DNA of 64,000 nucleotides, taken from NCBI GenBank assembly GCA_965655095.1, contig OZ296648.1:152210001-152274000 (forward strand), in the 5' to 3' direction. The position numbers and the translations under genes were made by a program. The DNA comes from Haplodiscus bocki. Lineage: Eukaryota. Numbering within the stretch: the first letter of the stretch is position 1; the number at the start of each line of letters is the position of its first letter. The notes beneath the pieces are model-generated. The model did not search any database, was not told the DNA's origin, and saw only the letters and a list, made by a program, of their open reading frames with translations. Shown here in pieces: positions 39,085 to 64,000 of the stretch.

Positions 39085-40242
39085 CATTTTTTTGACACTA
39101 CTCTGACCTATCCGGTTATCAAACATTCCCTTGAGTTTTACAGAAGTTCAAACGGAAAGACGTTCGGATCACCTTCCTTGTAAGCTCTACTTTTTTTTGT
39201 TAAGAAATCCGAGTATTTTGAACAACTTTTCGAAAAAAGGTCACTGTGACGTTGATTTTAGATTCAAAGGGCTCTTTCTTTCACTTAGCGGCAAAATCAT
39301 CGTCACTACCAGGAACCGCGTACAAAATTGGCTCAGTAGAGGGAGATTTGCCACAGTTCTACAGAGGCCTTCCAAAAATAAACTTTGTTAACAAGACATT
39401 TGATAGAATTGATGATCTTCACTTGTACATTTGTTCAAAATTATGTAGACTTCACTGTCAGAGAGATCCCACTGAGGATTTCGTGGAGTTCTGGTTCAGA
39501 GCGTAACCACAGAACATAACGATTTGGTTTCAAGCCACGTCAATGTCCAATTATTTTCTCATCAATGCCAGCGTTCCGAATGTCGAACACGTAGTTCAAG
39601 AAACTACAACAACAGGAAAAAAGTTTAAATTTTTCTACTCAAAAAAAGGTTTTGTTTTTTTTCTACAATCGCCATTATCTTAACAGTTTCTCCGACACTT
39701 GGAAGAACCTTTTTGATAGCAAGAAGACTTGATTTCCTTGTTCGTGAGGACTATCTCTAAGATTGGGGGAGTAAAGAATCAAAATCAGCCAACAACTTGC
39801 GGAATTACTTTACCTGGGGTTTGCAACTCAGGACTCGCTAGCTGAACTGCAGAAAAAATTTTGTAAACAATAGATTTTTGACGTTCAAGGACAAAGTTGA
39901 TATAAAAAAAGATTACATCAAAATAGGCATGCGTTCACCTTGACGCCCCGGCGGATACGTACCGCGTCTGACTCAAAAACTGAACGTCGCAGGGTCAAGT
40001 ATTGACAAGGGCAAGATGAAAGTAGACGTATTCTCTTGCAATTTTTGAAAGAAGTGTCTAAAAATTTTTCTTCTGCAACGAATTGTAAGACCGATATATT
40101 TCAAATTAGAAGTTTTAAATAACCTTCCACTACCAAAGATCGGTGTCAGGTTGGGAAAAACAGTTTTTCGGAGAGTGTTGCGAGAAATCGATGTAACTGA
40201 AACTGACTCTTCATAAAAATCATCGAAAAACCAAAGTTGGTG

Positions 40243-40314
40243 TGATTCGTGGTGCAGTTGTTGCGCACTTGAATACAGATGGCAAAGTTCCATTTCCATA
40301 GGATGGCGGGTCCA
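40243..40314 (+). pseudogene. tRNA-Trp-derived pseudogene
   Basis: TGATTCGTGGTGCAGTTGTTGCGCACTTGAATACAGAT...GGCGGGGTCCA; in array register. Confidence 0.55.
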
Positions 40315-43189
40315 CAAATACTTTGAGTTCATTTCCACCCATCTGGTTCTGAAACATTTCAATTACTTCTTTAAAGAGGCTCAAACGAAGAAATCATTAG
40401 ATCAGTTCAATTGTAGTGCTGTACTTCAGCTTCTGTTGAAACGACGGAACATTTTGAACGACCTGTCAAAGAGGTGGTCACTGTGACCTTGACACTCATT
40501 TTGGCAGGCACTCAATTTGAGTCAATACCTTTGTCACTACCAACCGAAGTGTAGGAAAGCGATTCAATATAGGAAAAAGTGCCCCGATTTGCTACTGAAG
40601 TGTCTCAAAAAAACAATGTTCACAAGGCGTTTGCTGAAGTTGATGACTATCAAAGGGACTGGTTTAGCTTTATGTAGACTTCACTGTCTGAGGCACCTCA
40701 CTTAGAGTTTCTTGGAGCTCTAGTTTAGCACATAACCACAAAACCAAAAGTTTTATGTTCAAATCAGGTCATTGTCGAATAATTTGTCCATCAATGCCAG
40801 TCTTTCGAATGTCGAACACGTAGCTGATTAAACTAGAAACAGCAAGAGAATTGTTATATATTTTCAACTCAGGAAGAACTTTTGCATTTTTCTACAGTCA
40901 AAAATTTTTAAAGTTTTTCATACATTTTGAAAAACCATTGTGATCCCAAGGAGACTCGACTTTCATTTCTAAAGTCTTTTCTCAAAGACTAAAGCAAAGA
41001 AATGGTCATTAGTGTCCAAGAACTTGCGAGATTAGTTCACTTGAAACCCATCATTCGCTAATGGAACTGCACGATTAGACTTGTTCCTAGTAGTTTTCTG
41101 ATGTTCAAAGAAAGTGTTGAGTAAAGCTGAGAAATTATCAAAAATAACCACCAACATTCACGCCGCGGCGGAAAGATACCGCTTCCGACTGGATTTCTGA
41201 GCGTTGGAAGGTGTGTGTTAACTTCTGAAGGATTTGCGTCCTGATTTTTCAAGTGAAGTTGAAACTACGAACAGGCTCTAATTTGACTTGATCTAATTTG
41301 AGTACTCAGATAATTTCTACATTTTTTCAATAATTTTAATGAGAATACAACTAATCTCTATTTGTCTAAAACTTCAACTCTAGATTGATATCTGGATCAA
41401 AAAATTCAAATTCCATTAAAGTCACAAATGGGAACTGTATACAAAGTTATATTTCAACCAATGACGTTTCAGGAACTTCTCTAAATTGCGTGTTTATTGT
41501 ATACATGCGGTTTTTATTTAAAAAAAAACTTCAAAACATGTTCATAAGAAAGTTTATCACGTTTCAGTGGGGTTCCAGTTTTATGATATAACTTAATGTC
41601 TGCAAAATCTTTTGTTCTCAGTGAAATGTTTCGGTTCTAGGAAAGTTCATTTTCAAAAAACTTCTCCTATTTCTCAGGATTTATCTGTAAATTATAATAA
41701 TTTGATCATATAAATCTTATGGGTTCGACTTTTAATTTCAGGTGGAGAAGAGTCATAAAGTATCAAACAATTGAGATTGATATCAGTTTATTGATCAATT
41801 GAACATTTTCCGAAAGTTTCAAAGTTGTGTTTTAGTTTGGGATTTTTAACACATGAGATTCTTACTTTATTCTGTTGTTCACATCAATGCATGAACTTGG
41901 ACGAACAACATGACAGTTCTCTTTGATGTCGTAATTTGACATAATTACATGTCAGTTCACTTGAATGACAGAGTTCAACTTGCTAAGGTGGCCATCAGAC
42001 ATGCAGGGGATTGCTAACATGTCAACGTGAGAACTAGTTCAAACTTATGAGAGGAAAAAGGAGTAAATGAGCAGTTTAGAGTGAGTTCTCGAATTCTTTG
42101 CAAATCGAGCAATTTTGCTGACTTTTCCCTCATTCCAAGTCTTCGGTTACAACAATGGTTTTTTTGTTCACTAAGTTTCCGTTACTTTGCTTTCGTTGCC
42201 ACAAAAAGAAAGTTGGAAACAAATCAAGCAAGTGTGAAGAAAAAGTGAACAATTTTGACTAGTTCCGACTGAAAAAAGGTGAAAATTGCAGGATATGCAG
42301 TTTTACATTAGAAACTCAAAATTTGGGCCGAAAAAATCTTTCCTCGGAATTGAAGAAGCTTCAGAAAATTGGTTCAAAAAATTTTCCTCAGAGAAGTGGT
42401 TCAAATTGTTTTGGATTTTGGATCATACGGAGATTTTTTCTCGAGTTTCAGAGTATTTTTAGAGAAGTTTTCAGTAGAAACATTTTTGGTTTGAACAAGT
42501 TATATAAAATTGAACTCCTTTTTTCAAAATTGATTATATCATGAAGGTACTAAAAGCTTTTGGGAGAACGAAAAACAAAGCAAGTAAAAACCGGGGGATA
42601 TACAAAGCACTTGTGATTATAAAGGTAATGTTTTGAAGTGAACAATTAAATTCAACACAGAAGAAGATATTTTAAAATCACAAAAAAATTATGGGTATTA
42701 TAACTTCAAACAAAGAGTTTTCGAATGTAAAATAAATTTTGTGAGATTAAAGGTTTTTGGTTAAAAGAATCCAAAGTTACTTTGTTCAAAAGACTTTTCG
42801 GGACCAGGTTTCACACTAAAATGCGTCAAATCTTTGCTTGCATCAGAGCAATAACTTGGGTGACGCAGAGGTGAAGCAGTTGAAGCATGAGTTGTTGAAA
42901 AGTGACAGTTAAGGCAGAGGGTTTTTCCTGAACCAGTGTGGGACCCAGTGCAATTGGGTTTATTCGACTGAGCAGTGGCAAGAAAATTGGATAGAAATCA
43001 CCGGTTCTTCAGGAAACATGAACAATCATATTAAAATCTTTACCAATGGAATGTGATATACCATTCTGCAGAGCCAGAGAATGCAGAAACATGGATTGCA
43101 AAACAGAAGAAGCAAAGCGAAAGAACCAAATGTTCAGAAATTCAAAAAGCCTTACTCTACTAATCCGGAGATCTGGCGGCAGACATGAT

Positions 43190-43298
43190 GGATCCAGAAG
43201 TCCAGTAATCAAAAAATCGAGTAATCCAGAAGTCCAGTGTAAGCCAGTGAGCCACTGAAGAATCAGTGAAGAGCCAGTGAAAAGCCAGTAGAGAGCCA
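43190..43298 (+). repeat. Short tandem repeats (agccagtga-like ~11-mers; ccagaagtccagt x2)
   Basis: Direct read; lies in the 3' UTR/LTR-proximal part of the Gypsy element. Confidence 0.6.
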
Positions 43299-43399
43299 TT
43301 TAATTGTTTTTCAGAAGAAAAAGAAAAAGGTATTCAAACTATAGAAGTTTGTGTTTTTGGAATATCAGTGAAACTTTATAGAACTTCCCAGAGTATTGG

Positions 43400-46250
43400 T
43401 TCATAGTTTTTCATAGTTATTGTTCCTAAAATTACAGAAGTATCTTTCATGAAATTTTCAGTATTCCAGAATTCTGTGAGGAGTTTATGAAGAATGGTTA
43501 GTTCATGGAATCTTTTTGTTTTTCCGAGACAGATTATTATAATGAGCCAGAATATTTTTCACAGGTTTCTTTTTCTGTGAAAAGTGCTATTGAGGATAAG
43601 GTATCCTAGAATACGGTTGAATTGGATCTTGAACTCTTTTGTCAATCTTGCAGAAGGATCTTGATGGGGGAGAATCGCAGTGTAGGATGAGAGTTAGTCA
43701 GAATTTGCGTAATTAACATGCAATGTATCACTTTGCACAGAGAATTCATCATCAGCAACGAAGTTTACTAAAAATTAATGAGATGCAAGTTGCTTAAGGA
43801 CATTTTCAGGGTTGTCAAATTATCCATGTTCTGGAGAAATTTCATTGTCTGAGGAAATGTCAAATTCACTTTGAGTGAAAACATTAAACGCTTCCTTTTT
43901 TATATTTTCAGCGGCAGTGTTCTTTTTATCAATTAAGGTTTCCCATGAAGGGTCTTGATTTCTCAGAAGAAGCAGCAGAGTATTGATGAGCGAATCATAG
44001 TCAATTTGGTTTTTTAACTGGTGTGAGAAAACTTTGAGGAATTGTAAATGAAAACGCTGGATGTTGATGGCACTGAAAAAATCAAAATCTTCAGGGTAGT
44101 CCTTCAGAGCTTGACACAAGCCTCGCTGAGAAGTACTCATAATGCAGCATTTTAATTTTTTTCAGATATTTGCGGATTCGGTGGTTTGATTGTGTCAACC
44201 AGGCAAAGATGTTGACATCGCTAGGAGACGGATGTGAGAAGAGAACTTCCGAAATAAAAACCTTGAATACGAAACTAATATACGTTGAATTACAAAGTTT
44301 TTTGCACGAGTTCAGTAGTTTGGATCTTAAACAAGCAGAAATGAAATTTCAAATAATAATCGAATGGTTCTCCTAAAAAGTATAAAAATTTTTTTCAGAG
44401 GTATAAGCTTATAAAAATTACAGTGGAAAAATTATTTCACTTCTATAGGATGTTTTCCGTATGAAAAAGTTTCAGTGTCAAATTTTCGAAAGGAGGTTAT
44501 CAGTGCAGAGTTATTTCCGTAATGTAACAGCAAAATGCATATCACAAGAAGAGTGTTGCATTGTCTTGAGATTCAATTGCGGATTTAACCAAAAAAAGTA
44601 TGCGGTGTGATATCCATGAAGAACTTTCTTAAAAAATTTAATATCAGATAATCGAGCAATATTAGCTCGGTCTGGTTCAAATGAGTCTTCAATTTGTTTG
44701 AGTTCAATTTTTCTAAAATCTTTTGATTGAGTATTGACAGCTTCAATTTCATAATTAATTTTCTCATAAAAGTTTGAATAAGACGTAACTTGAGCATAAG
44801 ATACAGTTCTTCAAACATTTGGAAAAGTGTGCTGATGTTGCTTCTTCAAAACAAAAGTCTCTGATTGAGCAACTAATCGGAGTTAATCACAAAACAAGTG
44901 TTGCGAAACAAAAGTAATATTTGTTGTCACGGCTTGGTTATTCAACGGATGGTCAAAAGCTTTGACAAATGAGGATACGGCTGAGAAACTTCGGTGGGAA
45001 TACAGTCAGAATCCACATGTGCAGAGTAGGTAGAAAAGAGACATTGCTGTGGAAAAGTCAAAAGTCTATCAGGACCTCTTTTTGTGGCAAATAAATAAAT
45101 TTGTTTCAGAGGATCAAATTTTTGCAACGAACCAAGTACATATGCAGGTTTCATATTATGAAAGAAATGCAACGAAAATGGAGAGGTAGTTTTTCTAATT
45201 TGAAAGATGAATTTTTTTTGGAGTTGGGAGGAAGGTTATCCCAAAAACGTTTGTATGTCTCATGATGTACACGTTTCTTACTCACAGGTTGAAAATTCAG
45301 ATTCTAATCATCAGTTTGTTAATCAAACACAGAGGGACGCAAGAACTTCATTTGTAAACTCAATAATATTTGGTTATTCTTAGTCCAGTACTGAATAGGC
45401 TACTTGTTTAGAGGCACGGCATAAGAGATGTAAAGGTCATTGTAACGATTAGGATTCAGTTGAAAATTATACGGTGTCGAAACCAGATAAAACAAAGTTG
45501 GATGAATTTTGAATTGAGTTCTTCAACAGACAATTGAGATGTCAAAGAATCATCTCGATGTGAATCAAGTTCCGATGGAGGCTTCAGAGTTGGCGGCATA
45601 AGATTTGAAGTTGAAAATGCAAGACCATTTAAATTGCTTTTTAATTCCTTTCGGGGACTTAGATGAATCCGGTTCACTGAGTTTATTTTTTCGCTGATTT
45701 TTTTTTACATCGATCCCAACAGTTGAAGGCGCAGTATTAGAGGCTTCTCGAATTTGCATTTCATTAGACAGAGAGGTGTTCGAACCAGATAACGAGTTGG
45801 TAACTTAAGTTAATGGGGTTGTATTTTGTCAAAAAATGGAAAGCGAGCTTCCTGGGGAATAAGATTTCTTTGTAAACATTTGAAATAGTTGTCAACTCCT
45901 AAAGAGAAATTGCTTACTTGCGAGATGAAATAAATTTACGCGTTGAAGCAATTGTTTGAAATTCCAGAAAGTCAATTATGTTTGACGGTTGATTTGAGGC
46001 AGGAAGTTTTGATAGTATGGGGTTGATTTTGCGGAAAATTAATTTAATTTGCAGAAGTGTTGTAGAAAAAAGTGTTGCTTTTTTAGTTCGCAGTTTTTTA
46101 TGGAGCACACATTATTCTCAAAGTTTCCGGTACTGAGTTTTTAGGAGAAGAATCACAGTGAAAAATGTATTTTACAGCCTGAATTAAAAATCTGATGAGA
46201 AGATAGAATTGCAGAGCTTAAAAGAAGAACTTGTTGCGAAGAGAGACAGA
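43400..46250 (-). pseudogene. Unidentified accessory ORF relics downstream of env
   Basis: Co-oriented ORF fragments 43820-44140, 44585-44818, 44942-45172, 45456-45677 and 45914-46108 with protein-like composition; no recognisable family. Confidence 0.4.
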
Positions 46251-46449
46251 GAAAGGTTGAAAGGGGTAGGAGTTTCGGGAAAATCAGAAGATCAGAGTCC
46301 TCATTAATAATAACTGATGATATTTTGTTTCAGAATTGTTTTTGCAATTTTTCGGTTTTGTTGATTCGATATGTTTTGTCATAAAATTAGTGAAACTATA
46401 TGATACGGAAATAGGGTGGTCATGGGTGATAAGTAGTTTTAACAATTGT

Positions 46450-48950
46450 TTGTGGGGTTTTATCAGAAAGTTGGGTCATAAATGGTGATGTAATCTGGTT
46501 ATTATCCAGAGAAGATTTTGCGGTTGACGTTTTTGTGTTATGCAATTGTGTGAAAGGAATAAAAAAACAATTCTCAGGTTCAATTCATCTGCCTTGATAT
46601 TTGTCTGTTTACAGTGAGCTTGACGGCTCCTTGACTTCAGAAATCTGAGCCCTGAGTTCTCGATTTTTTTAAAGAATTCATATGAGTCTTCCACCTACTA
46701 TTTTTTGAAGAATATTATGGAGGGTCATCGAAGAGTTTCACCCTTTTTTCACGTTCAGCATCATGCAAGTCAGTGACCATTTTCATTTTTTGTGTGGTAA
46801 TTTTGAAAAATCCCAAGACTATGGAAATCAGTAAAGCTATATTTTGATGTAGTCTATACCTATTTGATTTATATTTATAGAAAACCTGTAAGAATGTAAT
46901 GACATTTTGTAGAAACACAGAATTGGAAAAATAAGAACCACTTTGAGTTAGAATAAAACATGGAAAGCTAAATAAAAGAAAAAAAGAGCATCAGCAAACC
47001 ACTCAGGAGCAAACGGAGCGGCAGTGTTCGGGAGTTGATCAGGTAGACCGACCACTAAATCATTGTCTGGGTTAAATCGATTCACGTTACATGTTGAAAA
47101 AAATCATTTGGTTGTTTTTCAGAAGAGATGAAAAAAGATTTAAAAAAGCTTTTCACAAATGTTTCAGTGTGGTATCATAATGTTTCTTGAAGAAAACACA
47201 ATTCCAGAAACTTGTTAATTCAGCATTGGACTAGGTGCCAGGTTCATGTGCAGTGAAGGTGTTTGAGCTTCATGCACATTGAACTTGTTTTTGGTTAAAA
47301 AACAATGGGGTGGCTCGTAATACAGGTCTAGGAGTCAATACAAAGCGTTCACCTTTATCATGTTCTAAAACTATGACATTCTGTGGATTTTTATCACAGG
47401 ATATAAGATTAGCATAGCTAAAATGTTGTCCTGGAATGGGAACAATGTGCCTTACAGTGTCTTGATAGCATAAAAGTAAACGATCAAAGCACTTAACAGA
47501 TTAGTACAGAGGTGAAAGAGATTGAGGACAATCAAAAAACCAAACAGTAGAGCCTTCTACACAGAGAAGGTTATTGCAGTTTCCAGTTAAGTGGTAACCA
47601 GAGAGTTGAGTGTTTTGAGCAGAGATTGCTAATATAGCTTCCATTTGTGTTCTTTCTAGTTCAGGATAGGATTTAGTTTATTCAGTTGTTATACTGTCAA
47701 AGTTTTATAAACATGGTTGATAGAAAAATCTGTCTTTGCATTTTCGTGCGCCACAGTTTCGAAACTGTTTGAATCATTCAGTGGAGGAAAATAAATTTTA
47801 CTTTTTACCGAGTCGAAGGCTAGTGGTGAGGACATTGGACTTTGACTGAACGGTGGTCTTTGATCAACAACATTTGGGTTTTTGTTGCGAGTGTTCATTT
47901 TGGAGCGTTCACGATAAATGACAACACAGTAGGACACTGAGTTGTATCCATTTGTGCTGGTTTTTTACAGAAAGTTTTTCTGTGAAAAAGTTCCAGTCGT
48001 GATAATATTGGAGTAGTGGTTCCCAATGGTGAAAATGTATGTGCAAGTACAGTTGACAGTACCCCTTTATTATTTTTTCAGTATTTTTTCCCGTATTATT
48101 GAAGATGTCATCAGTTTACAACCAGTAGCGTTTGTGCAGTTTAGACATACGTCCGATGAAAGCAGAGATATGATTTATTAAAAACCTTTCCTCAGGAAAC
48201 CAGAAAATAGTATATGGATGTTTTGGTGTTAGTTTACAAAAGTCATCAGAATACAGACATGAAAAGGTATGAACTTGAAGTATTAGTTTATCTAGTTTAT
48301 TTTAATAGTCCACGAATAGCCGCAGAAGTTTCTTCAATATTTAATGAGGATTTATTTTTATCAATTAGATATTCTTGATTATCTTTGCATCTTGACTTTG
48401 AATTTTCAGTACTAGTAATACAAACATAAGCAATTGCTAGATAGGTGAATATAGCATTATGTACAGTGTTTAGTTTGGTTACAGTGAATGACGTCTGTCT
48501 TTTTTCAATTTGAACATAAAAACCTAGTCTGTCAAAGTACATGGAAGAGCCATTAAAAATTATTGATTCAGTTCAGCACTCTCCGTTCCATTGAGGTTCC
48601 GGATGTTAATTTTGCACACGTTTGGATATATTTCATCACTTTGTAGCATGGAATTAGTTTTGCCAATTTATAAAGTAGAATCTACGTTTTTCGTTGTGTG
48701 CACCTTTAGCACAAAACACTCGTGTCCTTTGAAAGGTTGTAGAGCAGCAAAAAATTTTAATTCCTTTTGTTTCCGCACGAATAAACGAAGAAGCAATTGT
48801 TGTATCATTTTCGATTTCAGAGGGAAGTGGATTTTGTACTCGAGATAGGCTAAAATGTCTCAGATTGTATTGTTTCGAACAATCATATTGAGTAGATAGG
48901 AGTTGGGCAATCCTAAAATTATCAGGTTGAATCAAAACTTCAGAAGTGAT
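46450..48950 (-). pseudogene. env-like viral glycoprotein relic (Cys-rich ectodomain + C-terminal TM)
   Basis: N-terminal YDCSKQYNLRHFSLSRV..FCC...RVFC (ORF 48654-48935). Internal EGSTVWFFDCPQ..KCFDRL..CDKNP (~47390-47570). TM IALLISIVLGFF (ORF 46715-46918). Confidence 0.75.
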
Positions 48951-51349
48951 TGTATTATTAGTTTGAAGCAGAAAATTTAAATATTACAGAGAATATTATC
49001 ATAGTCTTTAAGAAAATGAAAACATAGTTTCCAGAAAGTCGTCTCGTATTGCAAATCAGATATAGGGTTGCAAAGTCATTCTTCCCCATTGATGATCAAA
49101 TGGAGGTTGGTCAAGAAAGTGAGTTTTAACTTATTGACAACAAAAGGACTAGGGAAATTTCGGTGTTTTGTTTGACTTGAAGTCAGAATTGGATTAGGAT
49201 TCAATCCATTAATTTTTACTGTTACTTCAAAGTTTAATTCAGCAGTGGTTGGAAATACACTAGTCAGTTCGCAAAAATATATAAAAGTAGAAATCTGCAA
49301 ACTACTGTTTATTCTGTTTACAGGAATAATGTGGTCTCTGAGATAATCTCTGCAATGATAACTATTTTGAATATCAAATCTCAGTGGATAATGGTATGGA
49401 TCAGGTGTAGGAGGTCTTAAATTGTCGTTTAGTGCCTGACATGACAGTTCAGCATTATTAAAAGCACCCAGTGCAGAGACTGTTTGTTGATCTCCAATAA
49501 CAGCAGTGGATCTGGCGTATGAGTGAACAGTGAAAGAAGTTTCTATTTCAGAGGAAAGTCTCGAGGAAAGTGGAATATCAGAAAGAGAAGGAGGAAGCTT
49601 TTCAGAAGTAGATGAATGAGTTTGTGAAAGTGGACGCAGCATTGTAGAGATTGAGGTTGATGTTGATCTTGTACGAGAAGAAGAAGGGAACGTTGAAACG
49701 GTCTTGATCTCAAATCATAAGAAGGAGTTACTTTTTGGGCAGAGGTTGGGAAAGTTTTTTTTGATGAATCTTCGGATTCACAATTCAGAAAATCGTCAAC
49801 AAAGGATGTGCAGAACTAAAAATTTCAGAGCTGAGATCAGAAAGTTTTTTCTGATTTTGTGTTCTTTCAGAAGTAGACGGTTCATAAACTCTTCTTTCAG
49901 AGCAATGGTATAAGCCCTGTCACAGAGTGTAGCGTCGAATGTTTTTTGGTGTTTGAAAGAATTTGAATTTCTAACAACAGATTTAGTAGGAGATGGAGGT
50001 GGTAATGGAATTGGAGGAGAATCTATGTCACACGGATCCGGGTTATGAATGGGTCTAGGATTGGTAACCGGACTGAATGCTGGAGCTACCGGTGTCGGTG
50101 ATTAAGGAGGCCTTTCAACCTTCAGAGAAGTTTTGATTCAATTCTCAGGGGAAGAAAATGGTTTTTCAGAACTGGTTGACGTTTGTACAGTAGAGACACT
50201 ATGCATAAACTTCGACTTTTTTCAGAAACTGGGAGAGCAATGGTTAAATTCTCAATTTCAGTTGATTCCGAAGATAAATCCAGGATTACGTCAGTATCAG
50301 AGAAAAAAATTTTAGTTACCGTGTTTAGAGATTCTAAAACGTATTCAGTTTCATCAGCAGTTTTTGAATCGAAGTTAACATCTTTAAAAAACTTCAAAAC
50401 AATTTCGACTTTTATAAACCACAGTGGTTGCAAATTTCTCAAAATGAGTTTCGGGAAAAAAATCATTTTCTCGGTATGTTGGACTCCTGTCCAGATCAAA
50501 TAGCAGAGTCTCAAAGTCGAAACACAAGAGATACAATCTGAAAATAACAAGGATTCTACTCTTGTGGATGATTCCAGCGACTTTTGAGACTTTTCGATGA
50601 ACAAGTTCAATCAATTCGGGAGGCTTTAAAATGAATATTTATCTGGAGTAGAAGGTAATGGAAGAAAAAGACGACATTTTTCCCGGTAGTAGTGGTGAAT
50701 CACATTTGGTTCCAGTTTTTCTATTGGAGTGTTGTGATTGGTTGAAATGCAGAGAAGATTTTGATTTGTCTGTGTATGATGTAGGAGAGGCATAAACCCT
50801 ACCAGTGTCAGAAAGGTGAAATAATACAAGAAACTTACTGAAGGATTGAATTTTTAACGACCTTGATTTAGGATATGAAGTATCAGAATCAGATTTTAAT
50901 CGAGAAGCATGATGATGATCATCATTTGAATTACCAGAAGACTTGTATAATTCATTATCAAATATACCTGATGTGTCATCATTATCAATAAAATCGGTAT
51001 TATTTGAAACTGCAGATAGTTGTAATAATGTTTAGGTACTTTTCCTGAAGGTTTTTTTATATTGATTTAGGAATGGTTTCACAGCTTCGAATGAAAAAGA
51101 TTCCAGTGGTTCAGATATTATTTTTTTCCTTTAACATTGATCCGAAATGAGAATTGATGAATTCGGATGTCGGCTAGAAATTGGTGACAACGGTTTTTTT
51201 GTGGAGGAAGTACAGTTTCATGTCTCACTAAAAATAGTACACGTTTGGTTTGATTAACATAAGTCAGTGTTGCAAAACGAAATTGCAGAGGTAATTGTTT
51301 GTGTTTTAATCGATTCATTTGCAGATCAGTTTGAGTAAGCGAGCCGGTT

Positions 51350-53750
51350 TACATATCAAAAACAGACCGCTACAGGAAGACAATTTTCCTTTCGTTTAGA
51401 TGATACGAAGTTTCTGAAACTTTGCTAATTGCTCTTGTTCAGTGTAAACAATTCGAGAAAAGTTGCTTTTCGTGGTGGAACGGCTGGAAATTGGCTTGAG
51501 ATTATGCAAAACATTGATGAAAAGATCAGAGTCGATGATGTTGTGTTCACAAATTGTTAATGCAAATACGATTCCGATTATTTAAAGACAGGTAACTTAG
51601 AGTTCTAGATCACTGGCGGTAAAAACACGAGAATTGTATGAATTAATATCCAGTTTTCTTTTGTCTGTCATTTGGAGAAGGACACAGCCTAAACCAAGTA
51701 AAAAAATGATTTTACAGTGGTAAAGAACGAAAATTTTGTTTTAGGTAACGTCAGAAAAACATCTTTTGTAATAGATGTTTCATTTGCTGAAAAAGTTTTT
51801 CCAGATCTTTTCTCCGAAGAATGTCAACAAGTACTTGGACTAAATCATACAGAGGCTTCACAAAATATGAAGTTTTTCAATACATTCGGGGAAAACTTGT
51901 GTGAGCCCATGAACTTCATCAATTCGTTTTTCGTTGTTGAAGAAGGATTTTTCTGAATTGCAGCTATTTTGGGATGACCTGGTTTAAGGGTGTTGCAAAC
52001 AATTTCGTGACTGAGATATTTTACAACAAAAAACAAAAAGAAAGACTTTCGGGAAATAATTTCAGATTTGATTTCTCAGCGACATCATGGAAGTGATTGA
52101 TAAGTTGCAGCATATGTGGTTTGGAATTTGCTTGAATAAGACATCATCATCAAACCCAGCGCGAACATTTGTTGGATCAGATCTTTCACCAGAGTAAACA
52201 TTTGTTGTTTGAAATAGACTAAGACAAATTTAAGGTCCTAAATTCTCTAATGAAAGCAAAAAGTCTATCTCCAGATGAAAATCCAGTACGTTTACGAGTT
52301 TCATCAACCAATGTAACATAAACAATTGCATACATAAGATCCATTGCACATATGTAATTTTTATTTGCCTCGGAAGCTGTGTTGCTGGAAGTTGCAGTGG
52401 CTAAGATTGCGGTGGTTGATCGTTGTTTGAGTTGAGATGTCAGGCATCCAACACAGTTTTAAAAGAACCATTCGTTTTCAGATAATTCAAGGGAATTCTT
52501 GAAAGTACTCTCAAAAATTGGTTTTTCACGAGGCGTTCAGCCAATTTGTTTTATTAACTTATATGCAGACCATTCAATAAACATTCAGTTTTCCTTTATA
52601 TTGAATGAGAAGTTAGGTAAGTCTTAGTGTTTGCAGTTTAGTATCAAATTTCATTTTAATCCGAAAAGGAATCGAATTTTCTCTGCCATTATCACGGTGT
52701 GTTGCATAACTTTTCAATTTCAACAAGACTTTTTCAGAGTTGAATTTCTTCAGGCTTATGAGGATTAGAGTTTCTAAAAAGAAACTTCTTCAGAAGTTGT
52801 TAAAGTAGTTTGCAGCATGGTAAAGGTGGATGTAGTCGTGGAGCTAATTTCTGAGACAGTTTTACATTTTAAACAGTATTGTTAATCATAGGATCTTGAA
52901 AAAGATCATTCTGATCCACTCCCAAAAAAATATTTGTTTGTTGCATATCTTGGTAAGGAACATTGATGACTTGAGTTGTCTCAAGATGGTAGGTAAGATT
53001 TATTGAGTGCATCAATGTTTTTAAATCAATAGGTCGATAATGAGGTGGTTTCTCAGTACAAATGTGAATTTGAAATTACCCTGTTATTCCAGTTGGAAAT
53101 GTAGCAATGTGCGTAGTAATTTTTTTAAATAGTACGGACCAGGAATCTTCAGAGTTTTTCGGCACTAACTCTTTAAAGGAAAAGTATTGTTTCAGTTTTA
53201 ACAAAAAAGTGTTTGAAGTATTTCAGCGAAAAAAGATTCATTCTGTTCTGTTTTTAGCAGGAAGGTTTTTGTATTTTTGATAGGAATATGTAGATCTGGT
53301 ACCTTTTTGGATTTACTTTAAAATGGTTCGTTTGAATTAACTTGTGAATTAGAGGAAAAAAAAGAAATATTCTTTCCAATCAACGTGGTAAAAGAAGAAA
53401 GTGTGGTTTGATCCTTGAAAGAGTGTTCAAAATTCAAGGTAAAATTTCGAAGGTTTTTTTCATGAACTTCTTTTAAAGAGTGGTGTTCAGGGAACAATAT
53501 ATTTAATATCAACTACACCGAATGGAATCAAGAAATTTCTTGATTTTGTATCTATTGATGAGGATCAAGTTACAGAATTATAATGTTTCAATGGAGCTTC
53601 AGAAAAATTTGCAATAGTCAGTGTTTTTGATGTGTCATGTTGGTCATGCCCAAATTGAAAATTTAAGTCATCATCATATAGTTTGGTATATTAAGTACAG
53701 AATTATATGTACCGCTAACCAATAGACAAACGATTTCCAGTCTTGAAAAT
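51350..53750 (-). pseudogene. Gypsy pol: protease, spacer, RT, RNase H (decayed)
   Basis: Motifs as above; KYLSHEI..KIAAIQK..TTKNELMKFMGS in ORF 51845-52036. Confidence 0.9.
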
Positions 53751-56024
53751 ATAATTGAATCAGTTTCGCTTTGAGAACGAATACACAGATTAAGAAACCA
53801 ACTTGTTGGACTTACAGTGTTTGTAGTTTCAGTGGTAAACGTAATGATTTCGAATCCATCTTTCTATTCTGAAGTCTTTTGAGTTTAGTAACCATGATTT
53901 TGAGAGGAGTTTGCTTGTAAGTTTTTAACAAATCTTCCAGATGCAGACGCAGATCTTGAACGTGGTCCCAATGGAGGTCAATTTGAAGATTTATTTTTCT
54001 GTAGTACTGTAATACTGCTAGAAATTGATCCAGAAAAAGACCCATAACGAGTGTTTTTCAAAAAAGACAAATCTAGAGTTTCTTCGTTATCTATAAATGT
54101 CAGTGTATCTTGAGCGTAATGGAGCTGGATTTGAACTGATATCTCTCTCACAATGAGGATATCGAAAACGAAATATTTCACCCGGATCACGATAAATGGA
54201 AGCTGACCTGAAAGGAGACGATCGATAGGAAAAATATTGATTGCTTGAAAATAGGCTTTTAATTGAATCTATTTTACGTAACACTTACGGTTCACGAAAA
54301 CGCTGCAATGAAAGAAATCCATCTTCTCCATATCGATCCCCTCGTTTGAGGTCAACCTCAGTTCTTCGTGATTTGATTGAATATTTTCGTTTTCGATATG
54401 CTTATCGTAATAGAAAGTTCGGTTAAAGCGGAACTCCATAACGCTCATGATACAATGAATTTTTTAGACAACGGAAAAGCTCTAGATTTTCCTTTTTTTC
54501 GTGTTTCAGGAAAAATTGTTATTGATCTTTTGTGTAGATCTAACTCTAACAAAAGACATTGTTTCAGAACAGACAACTCTTTTGATTGTGACCTCCATCG
54601 AGACCATGTACATGATCTGCGTCTGCATTTAGAAGATATGTTAACAACACAACCAAAAACTTATCAAAATTATGATCATTACACTGAATAATTTTCAAAG
54701 TCGAAGGATAGATTTGAAGTCATTATGTAAATCACTGCAATCACAAAAACTGTAACTCCTAGAAGTTGTGTTGATAATATGTGTTTTTATTCTCAAAACG
54801 AAACTGATTCAAATATATTTTGAAAACTGGAAACCACTTTTCTATTGGATAGCGATGCATATAAATCGGTACTTAATATACCCAACTATGTGATGATGAC
54901 TCAAACGTTCAATGTAATCTTGATCAACATGGTATATCAAAAACACTGACTATTGCAAATTATTCTGAAGTTCCATTGAAACAATATAATTCAGTAACTT
55001 GTTTCTCATCAATGGATACAAAAGCAAGATATTCCATGATTCCATTCGTTGTAGTTGATATTAAATTTTTTGTTCTCTGAACACCTTTTTTGGAAAAAGA
55101 AATCATGAAATTAACCTTCAAGATTTTACTATGAATTTGAATGAATCTTCAAGGATTAACCCACAAGAGCTTCTTCTACGACGTTCTTTGGAAGGTGTTT
55201 TTTTCGTGTAATTCCCAAATTCTTTCAAAAGAGCCGAATTTTTGTGAACCCATCATTTAACAGCCTTTACATTTTCCTCTGGAGATACACAAACTTTACT
55301 GCTGAAAAGAATTAATCACTATCCGCTGGAAAACATCAAACAAATTTTTTGTTCAAGGTGAAACGATCTTTTTCCTTGATGGGACTGTTATCGAAAATTC
55401 TGAAGGTTCATTTTCAGTTTTTACAAAACTTTTACTACGCACATTGCTACATTTCCAACTGCATTAACAGCTTATACAGAAATTCCTACTACTACTGTGA
55501 AACCACCTACTTATCGAAATATTGTTTTAAATACACTGATGCATTCAGTAGTTCATACCTACCATCTTGATGTAACTGAACTCCTTAATGTTCATTACCA
55601 ATTTAGGAAACAAATCTATAGTTCTTTAGAAGTGAATCATATAGATTTTTTCAAAGGTCTTTTGATTAACAATACTGTTTGAACTATAAAATGTACAGCC
55701 CTCTCAAAACTTAGGTCGTCAAGTTTTTCCACCTTTACCATGCTGCATGAAAAGTTTACAGTTTCTGAAGAAATTTCTTTTTCAATACTCTGATCCTAAT
55801 GAATCTGAAGAAATTCAACTCTGAAAATTTCGTGTTGACATTAAAAACGGTTTTGCTACACTTCGTAATGATGAGGGTAAACTTCTACTCCATTTCGGAT
55901 TAGACTGAAACTTCATGCTAAACTGCAAACACAAAACCCCACCAGAGTTCGTCAACATTATAGGGAAAAATTGAATGATTTATTGGATGACCGGCAAAAA
56001 AAGTGAAGAAGAAAAAAATGCCTC

Positions 56025-58535
56025 AACGCCTCGTGAAAAACCAATTTTTGAGAATACTTTCAAGAATTCCCTTGAATTATCTGAAAACGAATGGTTCTTT
56101 TAAAACTGTGTTGGATGCCTGACACCTCAACTCAAACAACGATCAACCATCGCAATCTTAGCGACTGCAACTTCCAGCAACACAGCTTCCGAGGCAAATA
56201 AAAATTACATATGTGCAATGGATCTTATGTATGCAATTGTTTATGTTACATTGGTTGATGAAACTCGTAAACATACTGGATTTTCATCTGGAGATAGACT
56301 TTTTGCTTTCATTAGAGAATTTTAGGACCTTAAATTTGTCTTAGTCTCTTTCAAACAACAAATGTTTACTCTGGTGAAAGATCTGATCCCACAAATGTTC
56401 GCGCTGGGTTTGATGATGATGTCTTATTCAAGCAAATTCCAAACCACATATGCTGCAACATGCAACTTATCAATCACTTCCATGATGTCGCTGAGAAATT
56501 CAATCTGAAACTAACTCCCGAAAAGTCTTTCTTTATGTTTTTCGCTGTAAAATATGTCAGTCACGAAATTGTTTGCAACACCCTTGAACCAGGTCATCCC
56601 AAAATAGCTGCAATTCAGAAAAATCCTCCTTCAACAACGAAAAACGAATTGATGAAGTTCATGGGCTCACACAAGTTTTCTCCGAATGTATTGAAAAACT
56701 TCATATTTTGTGAAGCCTCTGTATGATTTACTCCAAGTACTTGTTGACATTCTTCGGAGAAAAAAACTGGAAAAACTTTTTCAGCAAATGAAACATCTAT
56801 TACAAAAGATGTTTTTCTGACGGTACCTAAAACAAAATTTTCGTTTTTTAACACTGTAAATTCTTTCATTTACTTGGTTTAGGCTGTGTCCTTCTCCAAA
56901 TGAAAGACAAAAGAAAACTGGATATTAATTCATACAATTCTCGTGTTTTTACCGCCAGTGATCTAGAACTCTAAGTTACTTGTCTTTAAATAATCGGAAT
57001 CGTATTTGCATTAACAATTTGTGAACACAACATCACTGACTCTGATCACTTCATCAATGTTTTGAATGATCACAAGCCATTTTCCAGCCGTTCCACCAAG
57101 AAAAGCAACCTTTCTCGAATTGTTTATACCGAACAAGAGCAATTAGCATAGTTTCAGAAACCTCGTATCATCTAACCGAAAGCAAAAAAGTCTTTCTGTA
57201 GCGGTTTGTAGTTGATATGTAAACCGGTTCTTTTACTCAAACTGAATTCTAACTGAATCAATTAAAACACAAAGAAATACCTCTGCAATTTAGTTTTGCA
57301 ACACTGACTCATGTTAATCAAACTAAACATGTACTATTTTTAGTGAGACATGAAACTGTATTTCCTCCACAAGAAAACCGTTGTCACCAAACTTTAGCCG
57401 ATTTCTGAATTCATCAATTCTCCATTCGTATCATTTTTAAAGGAAAAAAAATCATAACTAAACCACTGGATTCTTTTTCATTCGAAGCTGTGAAACCATT
57501 CTTAAATCAATATAAAAAACTTTCAGGAAAAACACGAAAACATTATTACAACAATCTGCAGTTTCAATTATTACCAATAATATTGATTATGATGACACAT
57601 TAAGTTAATTTGAAAATGAAATATACAAGTCTGTAAATTCAAATGATGATGATCATCATCCTTATAGAATAAAATCCGATTCTGATACTTCATATCCTGA
57701 GTCAAGATTGTTAAAATTTCAATCCTTCAGTAGGTTTCTTGTATTATTTCACCTTTCTGACACTGGTACGGTTTATGCCTCTCCTACATCATACACAGAC
57801 AAATCAAAATCTTCTCTGCATTTCAACCAATCACAACACTCCAATAGAAAAACTGGAACCAAATGTGATTCACCACTACTACCGGGAAAAAAGTCGTCTT
57901 TTTCTTCCATTACCTTCTACTCCAGATAAATATTCATTTTAGTGCCTCCCGAATTGAATAAACTTGTTCATCGAAAAGTCTCAAAAGTCTCTGGAATCAT
58001 CCACAAGAGTAGATTCCTTGTTATTTTCAGATTGTATCTCTTGTGTTTTGACTTTGAATCTCTGCTATTTGATCCGGACAGGAGTCCAACATACCGAGAA
58101 AAATTTTTTTTCCCGAAACTCATTTTGAGAAATTTGCAACCACTGTGGTTTATAAAAGTCGAAATTGTTTTGAAGTTTTTTAAAGATGTTAACTTCGATT
58201 CAAAAACTGCTGATGAAACTGAAAATAATTTAGAATGCATAAACACTGTAACTAATATTTTTTTTCTGATACTGACGTAATCCTGGAGTTATCTTCGGAA
58301 TCAACTGAAAATAAGAATTTAACCATTGCTCCCCCATTTTCTGAAAAAAAAATCAAAGTTTATATAAAATGTCTCCACTGTACAAACGTCAACTAGTTCT
58401 GAAAAACCAATTTCTTCCACTGAGAATTCAGTGAAAACTTGTGTAATTGTTGAAAGGCCTCCCTAATCACCGACACCGGTAGCTCCAGCTTTCAGTCAGG
58501 TTACCAACCTTAAACCCATTCATAACCCGGATCCA
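56025..58535 (+). repeat. Inverted near-identical copy of 50035-52537 embedded in the right Gypsy arm
   Basis: aacgcctcgtgaaaaaccaatttttgag.. at 56025 is the reverse complement of ~52537. The tract ends at cataacccggatcc (~58533), matching ~50035. ORFs 56615-56869 vs 51717-51956 and 57739-57942 vs 50626-50829 are almost identical. Confidence 0.95.
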
Positions 58536-60249
58536 ACTGAACAATTTTGGGGCTGTAACTGTATCTTATTCTCTTTCAAACAACAAATGTGTACTCTGGT
58601 GAAAGATCTGGTCCAACAAGATTTTGCGCTGGTTTTGATGAAGATGTCTTACTGAAGCAAATTCCAAACAACTTATGCTGCAACTTATCAAACACTTTCA
58701 TGTTGTCGCTGCGAAAATGAATCTGATTTTAGCTGCTCAAAAGTCTTTTTTTATGTTTTCCGCTGTAAAATATCTCGGTCACGAAATTGTTTGCAACACC
58801 ATTAAATCAAGTCATCCCAAAATATCTGCAATTCAAAGAATTCCTCTCTGAACAACGAAAAACGAATTGATGAAGTTCATGGGCTCATCGAACGTTTTTC
58901 CAAACGTTTTGAAAAACTGCATGTTTTATGAAGCTTCTGTATGATCTACTCCAAGTTCTTGTCAAAGTTCTCGCCGGCGAAAAGAACTGAAAAACTGTTC
59001 AAGGAAAAAAAACCTCTGCTACAAAAGATGTTTTTCTGACGTTACCTAAAACAAAACATTCAATCTTTAACACTGTAAATCTTCTTTTACTTGGTTTAGG
59101 TTGTGTCCTGTTCCAAATGAAAAACGAAATGAAATTAGAAATTTTTTCGTACAATTTTCGAATTTTTACCACCAATGATCAAAAACTCAATCTATCAGAA
59201 ACTCTATCAGAAACCCTACCAACTATTTTGAAATAGTCGGAATTGTAGTTTCAATAACATTATACGACTATATCATTATTGGCTCTGATCACTTTATCAA
59301 TGTTCTGACTGATCACAAACAATTTTGTAGCCGTTTTACCAAGAAAAGACAGCTCTTTCCAATAGTTTTTACTGCAAAAAACCAATTAGCATTTTTTCAA
59401 AGACTTCGGATTACTTATACGAAAGAAAAAGATCTGTCTATAGCTGATATGTTCAACCGTTCTAAGACTCAAAAACAACTGGAGCTGAATCAATTAAAAC
59501 ACACAAAAAGTCACTTCAGGAAATTCGATTTGCAACACTGATTCTTGATAATCAAATCAAACATGTGCAAAATTTGTTGAAAAATGAAATTGTATTTCCT
59601 TCACGGAAAGACGGTTGTCATCCAATTTTAGCTGCTATCCGAAATGATCAATTCTTCATTCGTATCAAGAATAAAGGAAAAAAGTCATACCTGAACCTCT
59701 GGATTTTTTTTTTCAATTGAAGCTGTGAAACCAATCCTAAATCAATATAAAAAAGCCTGTTAGGAATAATACCAAAACAGTATTACAACAATTTGCCTTT
59801 CTAATTGATAACAATTTTACTGATAAAGATGATCCAACTGAGAAAAAGATACCACAAGATGATGATTCTTTTTGCGGTATTTTATCACTGATTACGAATC
59901 CATCTACGTCTGGAAAAAAAATGATTCTGAAGGTGACAATCTGCAACTGCAAACTCTTCATGAAACATTCTCGTCTGTAATAAAACAATCATTGAACATA
60001 TCGTTCTTTGATCCATCATTTTTCAATCACACGTTAGAATTCAAAGATTTTTTATCTCCTGGTACTGCATTGAAGTTTGAAACAACTCTGAAATATCAAA
60101 AAGGAGGTCCTTTTCTGAAAAGTGTACACAAATGGATGACTGATAAATCAAGTCTTGTCACAAAACCACCAAATATCTCTGCTTGTCCATTCTTACTGGA
60201 ACATTAGCGATTAGTTTCCACTCTGTATATTGATGAACATACCGGAGTG

Positions 60250-61620
60250 ATGACTTTCGAAAACCAGCTTCCGGAAAATAATGACAAACTTCCACAGTAT
60301 GCTGATGACAAAATTTCCTCTTTATGTTCTCCACGGACTCTGTTTCAACGTGCTTTTAAAAAAGTTCATGTTTTTTTCCTATTGCCTAAAAGAACTTTAA
60401 CCAAAATTATCATAATACCTTTTCGCAAAAAGTGGCTATCGGTTTCGGGTCATGACTGTACTGATTGCCAAATTTATGAAAGCAACAGTATGAAACATGA
60501 AACAAAACAAAACTGCACTCTTACCATTTTCGAGTTTATCAATTTTTTTTGAACCATAGTCTTTTTCTGGAAAATAAATGTCCAATGCACCCCGCTTCTG
60601 ATGAAAATCTCTGAATTCATGTAACTGTGAATCGTTTCAGAAATTATAAAATAAAGGTACCATTTTCAAAAAATAACACATACCACGCTGTAATTTCATT
60701 ACATCACCACTGGATATCAAAGATTGGTCCGCTTCAATGCCAGATTACAGATAGATGAACGGAATAAATCAAATCTGAAACGACAAATTGCTGTTTTATG
60801 TTTAATACTCGACACTCTTCGAGAACTTCACATGCTCCTGGGACAAATGGAGTTGCTGAATTACAAATCAAAAACCGTGGAACTTCTTTATGAATGTTTT
60901 CACATGATAGTCCTGAAAACTGGTCTTTTTAAGGAAATTTCTTTGATGATGCTCACAAAACTCAACCAAAATTACATCTGCATACTTCACCGTATGAAAT
61001 AGTTTTCATTTGCAACTGCGTATCCCACTGAATTTTCATTTGAATCTTTCTCGGAATAAGTGTCGTGAATCTACTGCACAACACTGCTCTGACTTACAAC
61101 CTCTTTCTCATTACCATTTCACTGATATGAATCCGTTGTTTCAAAGCATTTTGTTGAAGCCAGTTTCCAATTGGTTTTTTGCTATTGTAAAATCGATGCT
61201 GCAAGTTGTTAATAAGTATATCAAGGCGAACTGAAAAAAATAAATTCTTTTGCCTAAACAATAGAAGACACACCTAGTCTTGATAAACCATTACCAATGA
61301 TTTCATTTTTTATATCGAATTTTTAATGCTGTTAAATTTTCTGACAAACTGAAGTTAAAATCTCAAATAAAATCTGATTCCCAACTTTTTTCTCTTAAAC
61401 CAAGATCTTCAACATTTCAATCCTTCAATAAATTCTCTGAAATATTTGACTTTTTTGACACTGGTATTGTTTGACTCTCCTACGTCATTCGATGACAAAT
61501 CAAATTTTTTTCCGCATTTCAACCAATCACAAGCCTCCAAAAGAAATACTGGAACCAACTATGGTTCACGACTACTATCGAGCAAAAATGTCATCTTCTT
61601 CGTCCAATACCCTCTACTCC
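60250..61620 (+). pseudogene. Gypsy integrase (zinc finger, DDE core, C-terminal domain), decayed
   Basis: HDCTDCQ (ORF 60247-60552), D.FS-like (~60630), GP...TDR, HAPGTNG.AE..IK and C-terminal domain at ~61350-61600. Confidence 0.8.
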
Positions 61621-63329
61621 AGATAAATAATCATTTCAACGCATTCGAATTGAAAAGTTGCTTATCGAAAAATCTTGAAAGTCCCCGGAAACATCACAAT
61701 ATTAGTTTTTTTGTTCTTTTCAGATTGTATCTCTTCTTTTTTGACTTTGAGATTCTGCTTTTTAATCTGGACAGAAGTCCAACATACTGACAAAAAGAGG
61801 TTTTTAATAAAAAATAAATAGAGAATTTTACAACAACTATAGTTCAATAGAAGTTGAATCATTTCGAAATTTTACAAAATTGATAGCGTTCATTCAAATA
61901 CTTCTGATGAAACTGGTCATGTCTTGAACCTATAAACACTAAAAGGAAAAATTTTTCGCCTGTTACTGGCGTAAAGCTGGATTCGTTTCCGGAATCAACT
62001 GAAAAACTTAATATACCTTCTACTCCGCCAGTCTTTGAATTAAATTGAAAAATTAGATATACTGGATCCACTGTACAAACATCAACTGTTATTGCAAAAA
62101 TCTATTTCTTCTTCTGAGAATTCAATAAAAAATTGTGTAACTGTTCATAGACCTCCTTTGTCACCAAAACCGGTAGATCCGGCTATCTGTTTTCTAACAA
62201 CCCCTAGACCTATTCCTATCCCGGATCCATCTTACATAGATCCTTCTCCATTTACATTACCGCCCTCACGTCTTACTAAACCTGTCGCTAGAAATTCAAA
62301 ATCTTTCAAACACAGAAAGTGATTCGACTCTAAACTCTGTGACAAATCTTCTACCACTTCCCTGCAAAATAAATTTGATGGAACACGTACTTCTGAAAAT
62401 ACACGTAACCTGAAAAAACTCCTCTGCTCTTAGCTCTGAAACTTGTTCTCTGTTATATCCAAAACTATCTTCAAGTTTGTTGTGCACATTTTTTGATAAT
62501 TTTTTGAAATGTGCAGCTGAAGTTTCATCAAATGAAATGGTATTTTAGCAACTTCTTCTCAAAAAGTAACTCATTTTTATGATTTGATATCAAGACCAAT
62601 TGAACGTCCTCTTCTTTTCGTACAAGATCAACAACCTCAATCTCTGCAATGCTGCTTCCACTTTCACAACTTCTTCCATCTACTTCTGAAAACCTTCCTC
62701 CTTCTCTTTCTGATACTCCACTTTCATAAAGGATTTCCTGTGGTAAAGAAACTTCTTTCAATGCTCGCTCTTTCCCAAGATCCACTGGTCTTATTGGTGA
62801 CCAAACATCAGTCTCTTCACTGAGTGCTGTTAGATTTGCTGAACTTGCATCTCATTCGCAAGCCGGAAGACTTAGACCTTCCTACAATTGACCCATATCT
62901 TTATCCGTAGAGACTTGGAAATCAAAACTTCAGACATCTCAGACAAAATCTGTGAAAACACATTTTTACTGTAAACAGAAAAAACGAAAGCCTGCAATAA
63001 TCTACAAAATCTGTTAATCGAGAACTGACTAGATTAACTCAAACTACTGCTGAGTTAAGGTTTGAAGTAACTGTCAAATTCAATTTATTGAAACCTCATC
63101 CATTTACGACTTCAACTCAAACTAAACACCGATCTCTCCCCAGTCCCTTTGTTGTGAATAGTTTACAATATGCTTGGCTGACGAACCTGAATTTGGTCAA
63201 CAGTGGGGAAGTTTAACTTTTTACAACCCCCTATTTCTGGTTTGAAATACATAACAACATCCTGAAAATTATGTTTTTATACTCTGTAAAGACTAAAAAT
63301 TTATTCTTGATTCACTGTAATAATTGTTT

Positions 63330-64000
63330 TTCCTCTGCTGCAAACTGTTAATACAATCGTTTGTGAAAAGTTAATTCAACTTAATGATTTTAGGAAAACT
63401 CAACTACTATCTACTCTTTATGATTGTTCGAAACAATACAATCTGAGAATTTTTCAGCTAATCTCGGGTGCAAACGCTAGTCAATCTCCCTCTGAAATCG
63501 GAAATACTTGAAAAATTGCTTCCCTGTATATTCGTGCGGAAGCAAAAACAATTAATGCTTTTTGTTGCTCTGCAACCATTCGAAAGACACGAGTGTTTTC
63601 TGCTCAAGGTGCACAGAACAAATACTGCAGATGTGATTGAATGGTTTGGCAATACTAATTCCATGCCACAACCTGAAGATTTAAATCCAAATGATTGCAA
63701 AAATTCTATCCGGAACCCGAATGGAACGGAGAGTGCTGAACAGAATCAATGTTCTTATATTGCCTCTATCACGTACGTTGATAGACTGAGTTTCTAAATT
63801 CAAATTAAAATGAAAGAAAAGCCATTCACTGTAACCAAATTGAACACCATAGATATTAAAATTTTCGCCTATCGACTGAATAATTATGGTTGTATTACTA
63901 GTACTGAAATTTCAAAGTCAAGATTCAAAGACGATCAAAGTTGTCTAATTGGTAAGGATTGATCATTAATTTTTGAAGAAACTTCTGTGGACTATGAAGA
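63330..64000 (+). pseudogene. env-like glycoprotein N-terminal part (right arm)
   Basis: LIQLNDFRKTQLLSTLYDCSKQYNLR and NTNSMPQPEDLNPNDCKNSIRNPNGT (ORF 63468-63797); paralog of 48300-48950. Confidence 0.75.

Follow-up and report, generated by a model that had tools for sequence, protein, structure and literature searches.

The interval 46423–48974 on the minus strand of the window (the whole 64,000-nucleotide stretch of DNA that we analyzed) is, with high confidence, the decayed envelope gene (env) of a Ty3/Gypsy LTR retrotransposon organized as LTR–gag–pol–env–likely extra ORF–LTR. For intact relatives of this gene, we predict class III fusion glycoproteins that are related to chuvirus-type G and have a gB-like fold; these likely mediated entry of the once-active element's particles into other cells. 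We observed the gene order, a Gypsy-type pol, homology of the relatives to PF24664, a hydrophobic N-terminus, a C-terminal membrane segment, 14 conserved cysteines, and decay. The element in the window is broken, without an uninterrupted gag, pol, or env.

To delimit the relic, we performed tblastn with P0023 and P0025, the latter an intact natural homologue of 876 aa. Residues 23–876 of P0025 aligned over 48974→46423 (−) in seven partly overlapping pieces that occupied all three frames, with 24–62% identity and a best E value of 1.9e-76; the best E values against five shuffled windows were 2–8. The relic contains many stops, which were present in six of the seven pieces, and several frame changes, and no open frame of at least 120 codons was found in 46450–48950. 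The stretch lies in the left arm of an inverted duplication, and the right arm carries the start of a second copy at 63281–64000 (+), with the first ~240 codons inside the window and the remainder running on to ~65900 in the neighboring stretch (L027). Together, the seven-piece alignment and the right-arm copy indicate that the env relic is real, spans ~850 codons, and is broken in both arms. A preliminary description of this DNA, made from the sequence alone, had proposed a relic of ~800 codons, which agrees well with this result; it had also placed env in both arms, and both copies were recovered, though the right-arm copy is only partly within the window. We rejected a chance ORF as a reading of the stretch.

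Three-frame translation of the minus strand located the motif YDC....N...FSL..V at 48887, followed by FFDC at 47539, CFDRL at 47491, and CD.NP at 47398, with the motifs scattered over different frames. Both the YDC start and the late FDC/C..RL/CD block had been described beforehand in this interval, as had a C-terminal transmembrane segment, to which hydrophobic stretches at ~46984–46936 (−) correspond. The left-arm relic keeps 10 of 14 conserved ectodomain cysteines, the other four being lost or unaligned. Read with X at stops, none of the three frames of the relic itself gave a Pfam match, so the assignment of the relic to PF24664 is made through its homologues.

These homologues form a large group, with 2171 representatives at E ≤ 0.001. 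A stop-free 277-residue piece of another genomic copy retrieved 18 longer database proteins, every one of which matched PF24664 (Monjiviricetes fusion glycoprotein), and the clusters of these proteins contain full-length ORFs of 876–911 residues. All three full-length homologues scanned were above the PF24664 cut-off (best E 3.6e-26). In an alignment of 32 rows with identities as low as 21%, 14 ectodomain cysteines were each retained in 93–100% of the covering rows. The term "Cys-rich" used in the preliminary description therefore holds for this conserved pattern and not for composition, as cysteine content was 1.7–2.5% in four homologues. In the same number of homologues, hydropathy alone showed a peak at the N-terminus and another close to the C-terminal end of the ectodomain, N-glycosylation sequons were present, and an RxK/RR (furin) site was absent (4/4). 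In Atlas, the feature matches fell in clusters of PF24664, gB, and rhabdovirus G; their recognition score was low, and we treat them as a lead only for that reason. An IMG/VR scan with P0023 gave no match, and a sequence profile of env gave none against PDB. A 115-row env alignment that included fragments was misaligned (10% column identity) and was discarded. A tree of 25 env sequences grouped P0025, P0004, and P0009 (support 100) apart from two young sister envs described below; it was built with a quick method, long branches meet in it, and we do not trust its deeper forks.

Next, we assessed the fold of env using a monomer model of P0025 rather than of the relic, with middling confidence values (pLDDT 61.5, pTM 0.38); an earlier model built on a shallow 15-row alignment (pLDDT 30) was discarded without being searched. 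Foldseek of the P0025 model against PDB listed only herpesvirus gB (best E 2.4e-10), with query-normalized TM-scores of 0.14–0.24 and an rmsd of at least 15 Å. Against BFVD, the top rows, with E 3e-27 to 6e-25, were glycoproteins of chu-like, qin-related, and xinmoviruses (~1e-26 compared to 2e-13 for herpes gB). VIA, an independent aligner, ranked gB first (Z 8.7 and 8.6), followed by rhabdovirus G (Chandipura G, Z 5.9) and thogotovirus Gp; domain IV of pseudorabies gB scored Z 8.2 with an rmsd of 3.9 Å over 157 residues. The best of these Z values sit near the level that the tool terms common. A single class I chain appeared in the VIA list, at rank 20 (Z 4.2) and amid unrelated rows. Identity in structural alignments of the model with gB and viral glycoproteins was only 9–15%. 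Each of these structural lines is modest, yet all point to a class III env, and the matches to gB and to chu-, qin-, and xinmovirus glycoproteins suggest this class rather than baculovirus F. F-like families were not among the top fold-search rows, an absence that by itself excludes nothing. The RxK/RR furin site that precedes the fusion peptide in F-type (class I) errantivirus env was missing from 4/4 homologues. The predicted fold and the PF24664 matches thus bear out the preliminary description, in which env was taken to be of a chuvirus/gB-like class III type and not F-like; the structure searches of the P0025 model did not return a class I or non-viral protein as best match, the outcome named beforehand as speaking against it.

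The element that carries env was traced through both arms. Between the integrase position and env, a Ser/Pro-rich coding stretch at 49076–50985 (−) is collinear in other copies and low in sense-strand stops; it is likely a long C-terminal extension of pol, and 49079–49714 gave no Pfam match. At 50976–50992 (−) we placed a deletion point where ~1.8 kb with integrase is missing from the left arm: other copies jump ~1.8 kb at this point, and the sequence that they match is at 59832–61353. Remnants of Ty3/Gypsy-type reverse transcriptase (RT) and RNase H were found at 51384–52729 (−) by tblastn with P0258, P0239, and P0233, with the DD motif at 52154 and an RT_RNaseH profile match on the relic (E 0.001) that falls below the curated cut-off. 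The C-terminal part of gag, an aspartic protease remnant (motif at 53728), and a spacer before RT occupy 52818–54250 (−), as seen from tblastn with P0251, the motif, and the mapping of full-length copies; this mapping also showed that the left-arm copy, cut within gag, lacks the 5′ part of the element. The right arm holds a pol remnant at 58543–63280 (+) with RT, RNase H, an integrase core (60555–61007; E 1.5e-11 against a sister-family pol), and the Ser/Pro-rich stretch. Downstream of env, a ~4-kb 3′ region at 42149–46322 (−) is common to other copies and has a weak sense coding signal from remnants of a likely extra ORF, for which two pieces of another copy gave no Pfam match and one piece gave no usable Atlas match. 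A 3′ LTR remnant at 41283–41500 (−), 67–74% identical to the LTRs of four other copies, ends the left-arm copy.

The pol order is PR–RT–RNase H–IN, with PR at 53728, RT at 52154, and RNase H to 51384 (−), and with IN following RNase H in the right arm. P0258, the closest database pol found, matched RVT_1 and, above cut-off, RT_RNaseH and RT_RNaseH_2, and its best PDB match was Ty3 RT/RNase H (E 1.4e-33), with other retroelement enzymes at 1e-19 or weaker. Two decayed pol pieces had weak SH3_Tf2-1 matches. The Pao-type profile Peptidase_A17 had no match among 59 pol-region pieces and five pol homologues; the profile does fire on an unrelated Pao peptidase remnant in the window (11279–11683, −; E 1.4e-7). 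The Gypsy host proposed in the preliminary description is borne out by the pol order, the Ty3 match, and the missing Peptidase_A17.

Several further features of the window were observed. The region 41283–64000 and L027 form one old fold-back (inverted) duplication centered at ~54280 (inverted repeat I15, 54247–54311), which cuts the element inside gag. The right arm contains a younger inverted copy of 50034–52550 at 56012–58534 (+), in which self-alignment showed the longest segments to be 92–99% complementary and two to be 85–87% complementary. This 2.5-kb copy of the left arm has the same integrase deletion and was placed in the right arm later, after integrase had been lost from the left arm. 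A LINE-type endonuclease remnant (5085–5474, +; E 3e-4), an old inverted repeat (488–1893, 66%), and old direct repeats (38247–41125, 65–67%) were also present.

To determine the state of the family, we searched the genome for other copies. A DNA search yielded a list of 46 matches (40 scored of 699 candidates), and in a protein search for env, 66 of the 67 listed matches held stops, the other being a 125-residue piece (51 of 8,610 scored). In all seven other copies that we opened, env is preceded by pol sequence and the order is the same; one of these copies is without its 5′ half and one without RT–IN. In one copy, ~275-bp TG…CA LTRs stand 18.6 kb apart, are 81% identical, and are flanked by a 4-bp target duplication; a second copy has a target-site duplication matching at three of four bases, and the LTR pairs of the two are 79–81% identical. 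In the window copy, all that is left of the LTRs is a remnant of the 3′ one. A TGG-type motif resembling a primer-binding site was seen in two of four 5′ LTR copies and is decayed in the other two. No polypurine tract was seen beside the 3′ LTR, and the bases before it formed a conserved C-rich stretch in 6/7 copies (e.g., L027, L039, L043). Sense-strand stop density was lower than in shuffled sequence in nearly all blocks between a point ~1.5 kb past the 5′ LTR and the end of env; 3′ of env it was again lower, but weakly. In these decayed copies, this low density points to ~3,200 codons of gag–pol coding sequence and to an additional ORF.

Across 17 of 20 loci (the self match and two partial loci were left out), the window env was 74.7–77.4% identical to 16 other copies and 79.3% identical to the right arm. 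Set against the LTR pairs, this identity between the arms suggests that the fold-back duplication is about as old as those insertions. Among the scored copies, this env-bearing Gypsy family looks extinct in this genome. No RNA runs were among the listed sequencing runs that hold the stretch, which thus give no evidence on expression. We found no literature naming the family in searches that were not designed as exhaustive. Beside individual copies, we observed a run of open ORFs (L036 and the start of L031) in place of the 5′ part of one copy; by eye, this run looks Polinton-like. We also observed a TRAF-like remnant (L042:444-947) upstream of another copy and outside its LTR, 35% identical to an ORF of a young family.

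The same genome contains young sister families. In a pol search, 46 of the 54 listed matches were stop-free, with 41–44% identity to P0258. The young families have open gag, pol, and PF24664 env frames. In each of the four young loci that we opened (L048–L055), gag and pol are followed by a homologous env, and additional ORFs are present. All Gypsy domains are present in the young sister pol, and the single env scanned matches PF24664. LTR pairs were 99–100% identical in three of the four elements, and in one young family 41 of 60 scored env copies were stop-free. One young family carries a TRAF/MATH domain at the end of an ORF 3′ of env (L049:5914-7236 +; E 5e-19). It also has a Macro domain, located between protease and RT (L048:4740-9998 +; E 1e-4, just over cut-off). 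Three young elements have a 517–523 aa ORF 3′ of env (L055:1993-3561 +) that appears coiled-coil-like by eye. For its 523-aa version there was no Pfam match and no credible PDB match (a single row, E 0.68), and the 3′ region of the decayed family showed no similarity to it. Unlike the C-rich stretch of the decayed copies, a G-rich tract precedes the 3′ LTR in the young s2–s4 elements.

These sister families bear on the origin of env. As families that are 41–50% identical in pol have homologous env genes at the same position, env predates the decayed family. Pairwise identities of pol and env in three families (49.6/37.5, 42.3/26.6, and 41.1/27.5) rank alike, which favors old co-inheritance over fresh capture; this co-divergence rests on three families, and P0258 and P0025 are not proven to share one element. 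From these comparisons, env and pol were likely passed down together from an old ancestor common to the decayed family and its sisters, rather than env being captured by the decayed family. The independent capture by this Gypsy lineage that the preliminary description had suggested is not supported. Its further suggestion of a novel family of endogenous retroviruses is preempted by the gB-type env genes already published in Gypsy elements across animals (Chary & Hayashi, eLife 2026, PMC13524379). The earlier structural guess was thus right, and the novelty claimed for it was already in print.

A capture further back, in which the clade of the decayed family and its sisters acquired a chuvirus-/xinmovirus-like G separately from the published gB-type errantiviruses, seems to us doubtful, though it deserves weight. 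It would fit the BFVD matches, which are far stronger for chu-, qin-, and xinmovirus glycoproteins (E ~1e-26) than for herpes gB (2e-13), and the size of the env family (2171 representatives). These similarities do not show the direction of transfer, however, and by eye the cysteine and fusion-loop pattern of distant homologues resembles that of published gB ectodomains from mosquito BEL and planarian Gypsy elements. In addition, PMC13524379 reports 114 gypsy elements found from BEL baits with the chuvirus-like glycoprotein of mosquito BEL elements. We consider equally tentative, and on balance unlikely, the fuller proposal that the decayed family is an extinct branch of a distinct, still-expanding clade of large, complex gB-type errantiviruses. 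Its class III env would stem from a chu-/xinmovirus-like source, in an acquisition distinct from the published cases; the clade would carry retrovirus-style accessory genes (TRAF/MATH, macrodomain, orphan ORFs), and would live in a host group outside the published survey.

Far less probable is that a BEL/Pao (Anakin-like) element carries env, or that env is a free insertion, derived from a chuvirus and nested within a Gypsy element. Pao elements with chuvirus-like glycoproteins have been described (Dezordi et al. 2020, bioRxiv 10.1101/2020.02.15.950899), and the window does contain a Pao peptidase remnant, but this remnant lies 35 kb from env. Moreover, env is fixed behind Gypsy pol in 7/7 decayed copies and 4/4 sister elements opened, and Peptidase_A17 is missing from the pol pieces and homologues scanned; we rejected a BEL/Pao carrier on this linkage and on the missing peptidase. 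We give almost no credence to the idea that the window env is a domesticated or still-working gene, even though solo chuvirus glycoproteins have been proposed to be domesticated in mosquitoes (bioRxiv 10.1101/2020.02.15.950899) and 10/14 cysteines survive in the left copy. The remaining four cysteines are lost or unaligned, its divergence from other copies fits general decay, and we rejected domestication on the stops in six of seven aligned pieces and the several frame changes. Against assembly errors as the cause of these breaks, four sequencing runs hold 81–97% of the sampled words of the stretch, though these runs may include the source sample.

For an env inherited with a Gypsy pol, we propose the following role by analogy with class III fusogens and Drosophila errantiviruses. 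The env product of the active element was most likely produced separately as a type I membrane glycoprotein, which would have entered the secretory pathway, formed class III trimers, and loaded onto budding Gag particles. Env-bearing particles may then have fused with another cell without furin cleavage and, as modeled on Drosophila errantiviruses, spread from soma to germline. An F-type env mediates such fusion of particles with another cell for Drosophila gypsy (PMC13524379); for gB-type elements, the same paper states that the entry mechanism is unknown.

While the window copy is a fossil, the useful lead is a genome in which dead env-bearing families coexist with young ones and which contains accessory genes and dozens of open env frames. 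This makes it a workable setting in which to ask whether a gB-type env drives fusion and cell-to-cell spread of retrotransposons, a role left open by PMC13524379. The genome is also workable for addressing the direction in which env genes have moved between RNA viruses and retroelements. More broadly, the analysis contributes a large family, and one more data point, to the view that class III env genes are of old origin and widespread among animal Gypsy elements.

Finally, we compared the family to known systems. It shares with the HSV/gB-type errantiviruses of PMC13524379 a Ty3/Gypsy pol, the gag–pol–env order, and a separate env ORF, and also a putative signal peptide, a presumably cysteine-bridged ectodomain, a C-terminal membrane segment, and no requirement for a furin site. 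The gB-like predicted fold and the similarity to chuvirus glycoprotein are likewise common to both. The family differs from these published gB-type elements in its size, its extra coding regions, and its missing polypurine tract. It measures ~18.6 kb from LTR to LTR, whereas the LTR annotation described in PMC13524379 dropped pairs more than 14 kb apart; it has long pol spacers, ~2 kb of Ser/Pro-rich coding sequence before env, and ~4 kb after it; and it has no clear polypurine tract. It is also decayed here, whereas that survey kept only intact elements. Anakin, a mosquito BEL/Pao element, has the same kind of glycoprotein in an LTR retrotransposon (bioRxiv 10.1101/2020.02.15.950899), though its carrier is Pao and ours is Ty3/Gypsy. 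The chu-like, qin-related, and xinmovirus glycoproteins share PF24664 and the best predicted-structure matches with the env homologues, and herpesvirus gB, a class III fusogen, is also among the best predicted-structure matches; these proteins belong to negative-strand RNA viruses or herpesviruses, whereas env here belongs to a retroelement. Burro, a giant planarian Gypsy element (PMC6431247), is also large and also has extra domains and an env similar to mononegavirus glycoproteins, and its MATH/TRAF domains have a parallel in one of the young sister families. Burro, however, is more than 30 kb long, with its env in frame between gag and pol. The env described here instead forms its own ORF downstream of pol, and the young sister family has its TRAF/MATH ORF 3′ of env.
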